This document shows positions 21,672-25,661 of a stretch of DNA of 25,661 bases, piece after piece (the first letter of the stretch is position 1; every line of letters begins with the position of its first letter). The stretch comes from a virus (Duplodnaviria; Caudoviricetes): IMG/VR virus record IMGVR_UViG_3300022868_000089, positions 1 through 25,661 of that record; one strand, written 5' to 3'. A program made the position numbers and the translations under genes. The notes below the pieces were generated by a model. The model had not been told where the DNA came from, searched no databases, and saw only the letters and a list, made by a program, of their open reading frames with translations.

Positions 21672-22661
21672 TTAGAACAGCCTGTTAAGACTCTTAGCTT
21701 CTCCTATGTCACATACTCCTGGTTGCAGACGTTCCTCAAGCTCTTTGAAGAACAAAATATTTACCTCATATCTCAACGCTAACGCGGCACTCCTCTCTTC
21801 TTCCTCTTCGTACTTACCTAACTTCTCTATGGTATATCTCTCTCCATCATCGAAATGTCTTTCTCCTAACTCACGAAAATACTTCTCAACAACCTTACGC
21901 ACTCTCGGAGACCAATTACCTATGTACTCCTTTGTGTGCTTACTTGCTTCTGATACTGCTATGTGCGGTGTATTTCCATAGTTCGTGTCCCAGAACTTAT
22001 CTCTTATCAAGTCTTTCACCGGAACAAACACCAATCCATACGCCGCTCTCTTTTTCCACGTAGAGAAATCCACCGATCCCCATGGATGTTTCTTTAACAT
22101 ACCGAAACTACCCATTGCGAACCCGTGTACTTTTGTTTTCTCTTTCTCTGACACGGCAAAGAATTTCTCATTTCCATAAAGAGGCTTTCCTTTAAAAGAG
22201 TAGCCCACGTACCTATTACACTTGCACATCTCTCTCCACCTATTGAAACCTCGCTGCTTATGCCACACAGGAACGATGTCTCTACCGACTTGTTCTCTTA
22301 ACTTCTCTGTCATTTTGTCAACAGTAGCAAGTCCTATGTATTCCTCAACATCGAGTTCGATTATCCTGGAGAACATGTAATGATATTCTTTTAGATATTT
22401 AATATATAGATCAAAGAACTCATCTATCTCTGAAAGATTACCTCTGCTGGTGTAGAAGCTATGTGTACCACTATCAAGCATTATATTAGCACCGTGCTTA
22501 TGTGCTTCGACCAATGCTCGATGTGTTTTACTATCGTTTCCATTCCTATACGCCTTGTACAGGTAATAGAACGACACCAGCATATTCTTATGCCCGCACC
22601 GCATCATAGCTTCAATGGAGTACGGACAGTCAGTAACAAGATAAATCTTTTCCACGGACAA
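21672..22661 (-). CDS. dpdA: TGT-fold base-exchange transglycosylase (DpdA-like)
   Basis: MLVSFYY, IMLDSGTHSF, ELDV, IVPVWH, KVHGFAM and SVDFSTW match the phage queuine-tRNA-ribosyltransferase-like/DpdA motif order. Clustered with folE and a QueD-like gene. Confidence 0.75.
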   Translation of the reverse strand: MSVEKIYLVTDCPYSIEAMMRCGHKNMLVSFYYLYKAYRNGNDSKTHRALVEAHKHGANIMLDSGTHSFYTSRGNLSEIDEFFDLYIKYLKEYHYMFSRIIELDVEEYIGLATVDKMTEKLREQVGRDIVPVWHKQRGFNRWREMCKCNRYVGYSFKGKPLYGNEKFFAVSEKEKTKVHGFAMGSFGMLKKHPWGSVDFSTWKKRAAYGLVFVPVKDLIRDKFWDTNYGNTPHIAVSEASKHTKEYIGNWSPRVRKVVEKYFRELGERHFDDGERYTIEKLGKYEEEEERSAALALRYEVNILFFKELEERLQPGVCDIGEAKSLNRLF

Positions 22662-22663
22662 TG

Positions 22664-23794
22664 CTATTCACCACAGTCCTTCTTTATTGCTTCAATGATA
22701 TTGGGTAACGCTTCAATGCATCTTGAGGCGTAATGTGCAACAGCTATAGGATTATCTAATCTATCCTCAACCAGATTAACACAATCCGTGAGACTGTACC
22801 TTTTGTAGAGTAACTGCTTGTTGTTGCCAAGCAATTCAGGATGAGAAAAAGCATCTGGAACTACCGGCTGGCAACCGAAGTTACACGCCTCAATAACACA
22901 ATAACCAAAATTCTCTTCCGCCGTGTTTGAAACCATTACCATAGACAGCACAAGAAGATTGTAATATTCTTTCTTTGATATTCCTTCATGTAGTTCAATA
23001 ATGCCTAAATCAACCAGCTCCTGTGCGTAAGCTCGTAATTCATCATCTCCCCATTGTTTACGCGCTGTGCAAAATACCATATTAACATCAGGCCGGATCG
23101 CTTTTAACTCAATTGCTACCTGAAGAGAGTCAACAGGACACTTCTCTAGATCGGGGCGGTTAGGAAAAATAACCTGCTTAACTTTTGTATAACCATCCCC
23201 ATCTAATTCATCCCATGCGTCTAATCCATCCCATGGATTACCCGACACCACGATCTTGTTTCTGTGCCACTCCACAGCCTCTGCTTCATCTTTAGCTCTA
23301 CATCTAATAATCTTTCTCTTATGATAGTTAGAACCCACAAACACCTTGTCACAAATATTTATCCAACCTCTTTCAAATATCTGCGCGAACTCAGCGCACG
23401 GTTCCATGAAATCTCCTTTTGTATAGCTGGCAGCATGAAGGAATCCATATATCTTGACAGGTATCTTATTGAGTACGGAAAGGTATCGGATGCTCTCTAT
23501 CCCCCAAAACTCCAGATCACTGACAAAGAATATATCACCTGGGTTAATCATCTTCTTGTAAAACATCTTTGCAATTCCGGCTAATTGTGTAGCTTTATAA
23601 TGTAGTGTAGAGTTTATGTCCAAGAAGGTTCCAGTTTCAATATGATCGGTTAAAGGACAACCATTGATAACGCCGCCGTCATATCCTGCTGCTGAAAAAG
23701 CTGTAGGAATCCAACGTGCCCACTGAGCACTGTAGCGAGACTCTAAAGGTTCTATCGGAAGTAAAAAAACTTTTCTTTTATTATTCTGCATCAT
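22664..23794 (-). CDS. GT-B (GT4-like) glycosyltransferase
   Basis: N-terminal LPIEPLESRYSAQW, FLHAASY and FPNRPDLEK, plus the ExFG..xxEA motif EENFGYCVIEA followed by PVVPD..S.PE. Confidence 0.85.
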   Translation of the reverse strand: MMQNNKRKVFLLPIEPLESRYSAQWARWIPTAFSAAGYDGGVINGCPLTDHIETGTFLDINSTLHYKATQLAGIAKMFYKKMINPGDIFFVSDLEFWGIESIRYLSVLNKIPVKIYGFLHAASYTKGDFMEPCAEFAQIFERGWINICDKVFVGSNYHKRKIIRCRAKDEAEAVEWHRNKIVVSGNPWDGLDAWDELDGDGYTKVKQVIFPNRPDLEKCPVDSLQVAIELKAIRPDVNMVFCTARKQWGDDELRAYAQELVDLGIIELHEGISKKEYYNLLVLSMVMVSNTAEENFGYCVIEACNFGCQPVVPDAFSHPELLGNNKQLLYKRYSLTDCVNLVEDRLDNPIAVAHYASRCIEALPNIIEAIKKDCGE

Positions 23795-24392
23795 TATTTA
23801 CTCCTCTTGCGTGCCGAGCACATCGTCTTTTCCACACTGAAGGTTTTGAAGGACTCTGAACGAAGTGTGTTTCCTGATAAGTTAATTCTTTCCCGCATAC
23901 CTCACATTTGGCTATGGGGTAAGACAGATAATGGTGATCTGGATTTACACAGCCCTTATTCCCGCAGCTACTTCTCAGGCTAACTCCAAAAGGTATCGGT
24001 CCTTTTTCCTTTTTATACTCATTCTTTGCAATCCGGAAACCTGCTGAAAGTGGATAACCATCTTTGTCGTGATAAGACGTAGGACAGGTAATGCAATCGT
24101 CAGATTCTCTTTTAGGTGTAAAACGTAGTTTACGCCGAATAGGAATAGGCTGAGATTTTATCTCTTTAATTATCGCAGCAAGACTCTTTCCTCTTTTCTT
24201 CTCTATAAGTATCCTTTCTATAAAAGCTATATCATTCAAGGTGAAGAACATCTTATTATGATTTCCGCGAGGAAGGTCTGGAAAATGTAAACCAAGTTTA
24301 TGCGTAAGCTGATACACTAACGCCTTAGTTATTCTGAACGACCGGGTAACTTGGTTTACATTCCATCCTTGTATAATTTCTTTTCTTTTCAT
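23781..24392 (-). CDS. MerR-like HTH fused to a degenerate HNH endonuclease domain and a C-terminal CxxC
   Basis: N-terminus WNVNQV...ALVYQL...MFFTLNDIAFIERI...GKSLAAI is MerR-like. The middle DCI...DKDGYP...GPIPFG.SLRSSCGNKGCVNPDH is HNH-like with the usual His replaced by Ser. CEVC near the end. AAGGA RBS. Confidence 0.6.
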   Translation of the reverse strand: MKRKEIIQGWNVNQVTRSFRITKALVYQLTHKLGLHFPDLPRGNHNKMFFTLNDIAFIERILIEKKRGKSLAAIIKEIKSQPIPIRRKLRFTPKRESDDCITCPTSYHDKDGYPLSAGFRIAKNEYKKEKGPIPFGVSLRSSCGNKGCVNPDHHYLSYPIAKCEVCGKELTYQETHFVQSPSKPSVWKRRCARHARGVNNDAE

Positions 24393-24613: not shown

Positions 24614-25441
24614 TCATACTATCAACGCTCCGTTCTCACCATCTTCCAAAACCTCAACTTTAATTTCTCTGCGAGGAAACCTTTGAATATACCATCTTCT
24701 TATCAATAATGCTATATCTTCACAGGAGGACGAAGGAGCCATTGTATGGAGCAGTCCTTCTAATTTAGTGGTAAGGTTACGCTTCTCCTCCAGGTACTCT
24801 ATATCCCTGTCAATCCCATTGCTCTGTTCGATTCTTACAGTGACATGGAACACGTGTCTGTGGAGATTCTTTAGATAATAGAAACTACCACGAGCTTCAG
24901 GATATTGGTGACAGCCTTCCGCAGAGGTTTTAATTGTGGCAAAGGTTTTATAATCATATTTTGTTATTCCTTCAAACAGATAGTACTTGGCATTGCTGTG
25001 CCATAAGTTACGCTGTGAGGTATAAATTTTGGACATCCAATGTTTCTTTTGTTCACATAGATAATGTGAAAGAAGAGTCAGGTCGTTTCTGTTCATTTCA
25101 ACTGAGTAATATCGAATATCCTCGACTGGACTACCAGCGAGTAGATTATAAACTGCAAGATGATGCGGATGGTATTCAGTAGGAGCAGGTATGTACAAAG
25201 TTTCTGCATTGTAAATTTCCGTTACCAGACTATCAGCAAAAAATGGATCACCAGGTAGTGGCATAAATACAGGCTTAAAACAGAAAGCCTTTGCGCAGTA
25301 TAACGCTTCGTATCGTCTATCACGATTATCGTAATCATAAAAGTATAGAACCTTATCTATGCTGTTAGATTCAAATAAAGAAAAACAACCAATGAGTTCA
25401 TCGTCTGGATGTGGTGCAGCTATAATCACTTCTTTTCGCAT
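24614..25441 (-). CDS. Fusion of a PIG-L/LmbE-family de-N-acetylase and a QueD-like T-fold domain (DpdL-like)
   Basis: N-terminal AAPHPDDELIG and HPHH are the PIG-L metal-site motifs. The C-terminal ~110 aa (EGCHQYP...LKNLHRHVFHV...DRDIEY...SCEDIA...EVLEDGENGA) is a QueD paralogue with LxxxHRHxF. Confidence 0.8.
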   Translation of the reverse strand: MRKEVIIAAPHPDDELIGCFSLFESNSIDKVLYFYDYDNRDRRYEALYCAKAFCFKPVFMPLPGDPFFADSLVTEIYNAETLYIPAPTEYHPHHLAVYNLLAGSPVEDIRYYSVEMNRNDLTLLSHYLCEQKKHWMSKIYTSQRNLWHSNAKYYLFEGITKYDYKTFATIKTSAEGCHQYPEARGSFYYLKNLHRHVFHVTVRIEQSNGIDRDIEYLEEKRNLTTKLEGLLHTMAPSSSCEDIALLIRRWYIQRFPRREIKVEVLEDGENGALIV

Positions 25442-25661
25442 AATTTCAAAAACTCCGATTTCACTCCAGGCTGTTCAAAAGATCCTCTGACAGCAGATGT
25501 CACCATTTCCGAATGAGCATTCTTTACTCCACGTATCGACATGCACATATGACGAGCTGTTACTTTTACCATCACTCCATGTGGTTTGATTATCCTGTAG
25601 AAATTATCAGCGATTTGAGAGGTCATATTCTCCTGAATCTGTAATCTCCTTGCAAAGACCT
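25426..25661 (-). CDS. folE: GTP cyclohydrolase I, C-terminal part (5' end outside the window)
   Basis: The frame extends to the edge: VFARRLQIQENMTSQIA...GVMVKVTARHMCMSIRGV...MVTSAVRGSF...EFL. These are canonical FolE C-terminal motifs. Confidence 0.95.
   Translation of the reverse strand, partial: VFARRLQIQENMTSQIADNFYRIIKPHGVMVKVTARHMCMSIRGVKNAHSEMVTSAVRGSFEQPGVKSEFLKLCEKK

Follow-up and report, generated by a model that had tools for sequence, protein, structure and literature searches.

A recurring fusion of an LmbE/PIG-L-like hydrolase with DpdL in phage deazaguanine clusters and a predicted amino-sugar base

The window analyzed here is a stretch of 25,661 nucleotides from a virus of the Caudoviricetes (IMG/VR record IMGVR_UViG_3300022868_000089, positions 1 to 25,661). 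One of its genes encodes a single protein in which a divergent LmbE-like (PIG-L) hydrolase domain is followed by DpdL, a QueD-like domain of the phage 7-deazaguanine pathways. This fusion is real and recurs in other viral sequences. We put the probability that N-acetylglucosamine (GlcNAc) is added to 7-deazaguanine (DG) and then deacetylated to glucosamine (GlcN) at about 0.5. A broader proposal is tentative and falls a little short of an even chance: a widespread group of phages would replace guanine with an amino-sugar 7-deazaguanine, built in tiers (DG, GlcNAc-DG and GlcN-DG) on either a DpdL or a QueC branch, and alleles of the deacetylase domain would be swapped within populations, varying the final processing of the base.

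The 275-amino acid frame at 24614–25441 of the minus strand is uninterrupted, with no internal stops. A sequence-only reading of the window had located its motifs correctly: HPDDE at 25397–25411, HPHH at 25160–25171, LKNLHRHVF at 24848–24874, SCE at 24719–24727 and EDGENG at 24629–24646. No small insertion or deletion was seen in the gene in contigs from four sequencing runs, which can show the presence of a variant and not its absence. Since 20 of the 36 homologues (query included; 27–75% identity) extend over 95% or more of the query, the fusion is not a chance read-through, and such an artifact is further ruled out by the intact run contigs and by the number of fused clusters. The fused records pooled from all fetched sequences (56) form 48 clusters at 90% identity and 20 at 50%, and the PIG-L domain comes first in 56 of 56. 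HxDD is found in 48/48 of the clusters at 90% identity, LxxxHRHxF in 46/48 and CxxxHGH in 0/48. In a quick tree of 93 PIG-L domains, the 29 fused rows need nine changes and well-supported branches force only one, which is compatible with either a single or several origins of the fusion. None of 50,697 annotated phage records covers 80% of the fusion query in tblastn searches. No form with three or more domains was found among 918 candidates of 483–2000 amino acids, which is weak evidence of absence. Among the 36 genome-contig loci listed as cellular homologues, one contig of a metagenome-assembled genome matches residues 5–162 and none matches the whole protein.

The C-terminal domain had been read as a QueD-like T-fold, and the model agrees: residues 165–275 match 3qn0 with Z 11.6 and a root-mean-square deviation (rmsd) of 2.8 over 109 aligned residues. 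DpdL is defined by LxxxHRHxF, and twelve pocket residues have been listed for it (Cui et al. 2023, PMC10516641). The fusion has this motif as L190-KNL-H194-R-H196-V-F198, in place of the CxxxHGH of QueD, and it keeps 12/12 of the phiST pocket residues (G15, H17, L33, H37, R38, H39, F41, R54, E57, S83, E85 and E104). The tblastn matches to this domain include proteins of ACP17 (YP_009609725) and RHph_I1_18 (QIG70625), which Data S1 of PMC10516641 lists under the name DpdL. The near-identical relative L002 encodes a separate canonical QueD, with CxxxHGH, and QueE upstream of folE. Together these findings identify the C-terminal domain as DpdL, the assignment already made in the sequence-only reading. 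An ordinary QueD, a 6-carboxytetrahydropterin synthase, was considered and rejected, given the missing CxxxHGH and the separate QueD of L002. The usual partners of DpdL are divided between two contigs, folE and a dpdA-like gene being seen in the window and QueD and QueE in L002; QueC was not found in a 44.8-kb relative that is 32% complete. The decarboxylation of 7-carboxy-7-deazaguanine (CDG) by DpdL is a proposal of Cui et al. (PMC10516641), whose pocket model accommodates the free base only. The same source reports 2′-deoxy-7-deazaguanine (dDG) in the DNA of phiST, phi19:2 and phi13:1, that of phiST being fully dDG.

The N-terminal domain had been called PIG-L, and its modeled structure bears this out. 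In the AlphaFold2 model of the fusion (predicted local distance difference test score, pLDDT, 93.4; predicted template modeling score, pTM, 0.77), residues 1–165 match LmbE/PIG-L structures. The top structural match is BC1534 (2ixd; Z 16.3, rmsd 3.9, 170 residues aligned over residues 2–214), and the N-terminal domain matches 3we7 with Z 14.5 (rmsd 3.4, 161 aligned) and MshB (1q7t) with Z 12.4. The seven best matches among 48,161 solved chains are LmbE-like folds (Z 12.3–16.3) and the next twenty are nearly all T-folds. Pfam reported PIG-L for the N-terminal domain with E 0.0066, under the cut-off, and missed the C-terminal domain entirely. LmbE-like enzymes have the metal motif HXD1D2 plus a further H, and their substrate residues include Arg68, His144 and Asp146 (PMC4101496). 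The phage domain is trimmed (median 158 amino acids). Across 93 such domains H11, D13, D14 and H94 are present in 93/93, H91 in 90/93 and R42 in 81/93, in line with the metal motif and with two of the three substrate residues named in PMC4101496 (R42 for Arg68, H91 for His144). By fold and residues, the domain is an LmbE-like metal hydrolase, and both active sites of the fusion are intact. Characterized LmbE-like enzymes act on substrates with a GlcNAc core or on conjugates thereof (PMC4101496). The coordinates of the features discussed are collected in Table 1.

Table 1. Features of the window around the fusion gene.
Feature	Position	Strand	Basis or details
PIG-L/LmbE-like hydrolase–DpdL fusion gene, 275 aa	24614..25441	-	Translation, homologues, AlphaFold2 model, structure search
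Trimmed LmbE/PIG-L domain (predicted), residues 1–160	24962..25441	-	H11, D13, D14, R42, E89, H91, H94, Y112, K132
DpdL T-fold domain, residues 165–275	24617..24949	-	LKNLHRHVF at 24848–24874
Exchanged deacetylase core, about codons 20–149	24995..25381	-	Bounded by conserved HPDDE and KYYLFE
folE (GTP cyclohydrolase I), 3′ end	25426..25659	-	Overlaps the start of the fusion
HNH-like endonuclease gene	23781..24392	-	Between fusion and glycosyltransferase
GT4-like (GT-B) glycosyltransferase, virus-specific clade	22664..23794	-	Invariant R213, K218, E294-x7-E302
DpdA/TGT-like transglycosylase	21672..22661	-

The sequence-only reading had regarded the fusion as the strongest argument that the glycosyltransferase (GT) and the deacetylase belong to the base-modification pathway. 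The tie itself was supported, and it is gene context that provides the stronger argument, as only 28 of 120 long DpdL proteins listed are PIG-L fusions. Judged by its sequence, the GT falls in a viral clade of GT4-like enzymes in which an E-x7-E motif is invariant. The deacetylases BshB and MshB pair with the glycosyltransferases BshA and MshA. Loci in IMG/VR were seeded in three ways with home-built profiles, using the deacetylase (all 24 loci), DpdL (best 80 of at least 581) and the GT (best 80 of 104). The 24 viral deacetylase loci all contain the GT and at least one deazaguanine gene, and seven contain DpdL and seven QueC. Among the DpdL loci, DpdA was found in 77/80, the GT in 63/80 (10 of 14 clusters at 70% identity), PIG-L in 1/80 and QueC in 0/80. 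The GT loci contain a deazaguanine gene in 76 of 80 cases, DpdA in 64, DpdL in 53, a PP-loop gene in 22, QueC in 16 and DpdL together with QueC in none; their PIG-L count, 49, is inflated by a seed made from GTs that adjoin PIG-L. PIG-L occurs with QueC and without DpdL in 16/80 of these loci. Eleven of the 80 hold fusions (two are near copies of the window phage), with DpdA in 11/11. In the window, as in many other loci, the gene immediately upstream of DpdA is the GT. In metagenomes, the GT accompanies the phage-type gene in 16 of 23 loci, the other seven being six contigs shorter than 3 kb and one that ends close behind the gene; 36 weaker matches, mostly longer ordinary PIG-L genes without this GT, were excluded from these counts. 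The deacetylase, then, tracks the GT and not DpdL across both the DpdL and the QueC branches, and it is optional. Two complete fusion-bearing genomes were found to have neither QueC nor a thymidylate-synthase-family gene, so no hydroxymethylase of that family would supply another acceptor for the sugar.

We propose that the fusion protein likely supplies two non-consecutive steps of a DNA-modification pathway that would have glucosaminyl-7-deazaguanine as its end product. FolE, QueD and QueE, encoded in the window or in L002, would make CDG by established chemistry, and from free CDG the DpdL domain would produce 7-deazaguanine by decarboxylation, as Cui et al. proposed. DpdA, by analogy with its family, would exchange 7-deazaguanine for guanine in DNA. 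The GT4 enzyme would then add GlcNAc, most likely onto the 2-amino group, for which huimycin offers a proposed precedent, and deacetylation by the PIG-L domain would leave a cationic amino sugar. Addition of the sugar after base insertion is favored over addition before it. As DG has no C7 substituent, N2, which is shared by DG and preQ0 (7-cyano-7-deazaguanine), would be the simplest acceptor common to both branches.

Cultured phages can be arranged along this pathway. Xanthomonas phages BUDD and X1 and Burkholderia phage BCSR5 have PIG-L-like, GT and DpdL genes, all present and unfused; in the regions read of BUDD and BCSR5 these share one operon with DpdA. In whole-genome searches, the GT was not found in phiST, RHph_I1_18 and Roos, which have DpdL, and the phage-type PIG-L was not found in ACP17, PA5oct, Phosso and BUCT-ZZ01, which have DpdL and the GT, nor in phiST. 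The phages in which dDG was measured (phiST, phi19:2 and phi13:1) gave no match to three GT queries. The restriction-enzyme resistance pattern of PA5oct DNA has been read as modified G (PMC12191111). The gene sets suggest three tiers, which the whole-genome searches fit: DpdL alone (dDG, as measured in phiST), DpdL with the GT (glycosylated base) and DpdL with the GT and PIG-L (deacetylated base).

Several points weigh against the amino-sugar pathway. DpdL expressed in E. coli yielded no dDG (PMC10516641). The locus counts are redundant and cover only the best-scoring rows of each scan (the 80 DpdL loci reduce to 14 clusters when grouped at 70% identity), and the seed for the GT loci came from GTs neighboring PIG-L. 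A PP-loop gene, present in 8/11 fused loci, is not explained by the scheme. In the alignment of the 93 phage domains the equivalent of Asp146 is not conserved (position 93 is below 70% conservation) and the region of the Asp95 loop is mostly gaps; the metal-ligand spacer has a median of 72 in phage domains vs 97–148. With these losses and the short spacer, we infer a specificity of the PIG-L domain for GlcNAc conjugates only from the neighboring GT. In addition, DpdL joins many different fusion partners. The 120 listed DpdL proteins of at least 269 amino acids include 28 with PIG-L, 32 with a domain similar to the small uncharacterized gene of the GT module (a motif recognized by eye; 2/32 passed a profile test), 30 in a cluster in which the annotated members are P-loop kinases, 13 with an N-terminal domain of no known family and three of YhhQ type. 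The joining of PIG-L to DpdL probably owes more to co-expression from a compact operon than to channeling. In P0115, P0072, P0083 and their relatives, the partner of DpdL is a P-loop kinase, a YhhQ-type transporter or a MazG/dUTPase domain, and a small domain like the gene flanking PIG-L is fused behind DpdL elsewhere.

The variety of partners also lends something to a different explanation, which we regard as unlikely: the GT and the deacetylase make a free glycoside of a deazapurine or pterin, or modify protein or RNA, the DNA carries plain dDG, and the fusion of DpdL, here as with kinase, MazG, YhhQ-type and uncharacterized domains, is an accident of operon packing. Known GT4 and LmbE pairs act on small molecules (PMC4101496), huimycin is a free glycoside (PMC7439116) and 4/80 GT loci have no deazaguanine gene within 8 kb. 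It is opposed by the GT clade itself, which is viral, located directly upstream of DpdA and tied to deazaguanine genes in the other 76 loci. The PP-loop gene keeps alive another possibility, of slightly lower standing, whose logic resembles that of mycothiol or bacillithiol: the GT makes a GlcNAc conjugate, PIG-L exposes the amine of that conjugate, and either QueC or a PP-loop ATPase joins this amine to the CDG carboxylate as an amide; DpdL would then bind or route CDG, with no need for decarboxylation. This would accommodate the PP-loop gene in 22/80 GT loci and in the fused ones, QueC in 16 others, the unproven decarboxylase activity of DpdL and the amide-forming QueC homologues mentioned for roseomycin (10.64898/2026.04.15.718813). 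Nonetheless, no PP-loop or QueC gene is seen in the clusters of the window, L001/L002, L219 and L026 (the relative is 32% complete), most loci with DpdL and the GT have neither PIG-L nor a PP-loop gene, and phiST, which carries DpdL, has fully dDG DNA. Least probable of the three is that the base carries an ordinary sugar and PIG-L hydrolyzes or hydrates some group other than a sugar, either on the modified base or on an intermediate of the pathway, which would agree with the lost Asp95 loop and Asp146 equivalents, the shared fold of the hydratase GalB (Z 13.7) and the GT without PIG-L in most DpdL loci, but not with the occurrence of PIG-L beside the GT in 24/24 viral loci whether DpdL or QueC is present, nor with the GlcNAc-core substrates of characterized LmbE-like enzymes (PMC4101496).

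Allelic variation was found within the fusion gene. The window and the related contig L001 share 98.2% identity over 11,058 bases, with nearly all 200-base bins at 97–100%. The divergent bins are 25000–25399, at 58–61%, and 21800–21999, at 94%, in the 3′ part of the DpdA-like gene. Between the two deacetylase alleles, codons 20–149 are 50% identical in protein and 57% in DNA, and codons 150–275 are 98% and 99% identical. Both alleles are in frame, fused and intact in their catalytic residues. Runs X2 and X3 contain contigs of both alleles at similar depth, and in X4 the other allele runs across the joint. Each breakpoint is next to one of the two most conserved motifs, as would be expected of homologous exchange. 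The QueE alleles diverge likewise (L001:340–933 vs L002:4273–4884; 95/194 residues, 49%, identical) in contigs that are otherwise about 99% identical. The modification cluster is thus mosaic in general.

The window is a phage fragment with all its genes on the minus strand, in the order folE, fusion, HNH-like, GT and TGT/DpdA-like, followed by clamp loader, PolA, RecA, SbcCD, terminase and portal genes. The DpdA-like protein matches the TGT-like phrog_887 (E 2e-26); its profile comparison with phiST DpdA3 (CGPG_00065) gave a probability of 1.7%, and its subfamily was left unassigned. The runs containing half or more of the window's words are labeled salt lake metagenome. Beside the clamp loader and two unassigned genes, window:16849–19365 (minus strand) encodes a family A DNA polymerase with an N-terminal domain of the uracil-DNA-glycosylase superfamily. 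At L002:2913–4270, QueD ends a long acidic frame, and the next gene weakly matches a dATP/dGTP diphosphohydrolase (PF18909, E 1e-4, below the cut-off). Other loci with PIG-L have further genes. In L003 (9430–10981), BUDD and BCSR5, all DpdL-type, a PAPS-reductase-like PP-loop gene and a small uncharacterized gene flank PIG-L. In QueC-type loci, L007:4915–5325 and its relatives are a conserved open reading frame of no known family (17/80 GT loci). PIG-L usually follows this frame immediately, and a second radical SAM gene is often present as well; the frame looked T-fold-like by eye, but its Atlas model was poor and its profile comparison with DpdL was not significant. L006, L016 and related phages of 220–250 kb have PIG-L, GT, QueE, QueC and a TGT-like gene, FolE was not found in them, and a divergent thymidylate-synthase-like gene lies about 8 kb away; L006 encodes ribosomal protein S21. 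The LmbE genes of Campylobacter phages, weak matches beside an epimerase and a polysaccharide deacetylase, were set aside as a different context.

If the amino-sugar pathway is correct, it would add a GT and a deacetylase acting on DNA or on bases, plain dDG could no longer be assumed for DpdL phages such as PA5oct and Paride, and there would be a bearing on which modification-dependent nucleases recognize such phages. The gene tiers predict a sugar-bearing deazaguanine, and cultured phages exist for each tier. Eight 7-deazaguanine derivatives are listed in viral DNA by Cui et al. (PMC10516641), none sugar-bearing. In the literature on DpdL, phage deazaguanines and hexosamine hypermodification, no description was found of the fusion or of a glycosylated deazaguanine in DNA, nor was either mentioned in the available sections of PMC7824862, PMC6884629, PMC13326640 and 10.64898/2026.04.15.718813; Iyer et al. 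2013 may cover parts of the module. The fusion and its module are a variant of the phage deazaguanine systems, one that predicts, at about even odds, an amino-sugar base.

Known systems resemble this variant in part. The DpdL of phiST (YP_007673448) and that of ACP17 (YP_009609725) share with the fusion LxxxHRHxF, 12/12 pocket residues, the T-fold and a FolE/QueD/QueE/DpdA context in which QueC was not seen. The fusion and phiST DpdL are identical at 35/99 aligned residues; unlike phiST DpdL, the fused domain stands behind a PIG-L-like domain and beside a GT4 gene, neither of which phiST has. In the account of Cui et al. (PMC10516641), the portions available of the main text do not refer to a glycosyltransferase, a deacetylase or PIG-L, and those of the supplement do not refer to a deacetylase or a fusion. 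The operons of BUDD, X1 and BCSR5 also contain PIG-L-like, GT and DpdL genes, with DpdA, FolE and QueE in the cluster (BUDD and BCSR5), but as separate genes, mostly annotated as hypothetical, and with a PP-loop gene and a small uncharacterized gene. For huimycin, HuiG is the glycosyltransferase proposed to attach GlcNAc at N2 of a 7-deazapurine that FolE, QueD and QueE produce (PMC7439116). Unlike the phage module, huimycin is a free natural product derived from preQ0, and its seven-gene set, as described in that source, has no deacetylase or DpdL. The LmbE-like enzymes BshB, MshB and BtrD (PMC4101496) share with the phage domain the fold, HXD1D2 plus H, the Arg68 and His144 equivalents and a GT4-like partner. 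The phage domain differs from them in its length of about 160 amino acids, its short spacer, its unconserved Asp95 loop and Asp146, its place in a DNA-modification cluster and, sometimes, its fusion to a T-fold.
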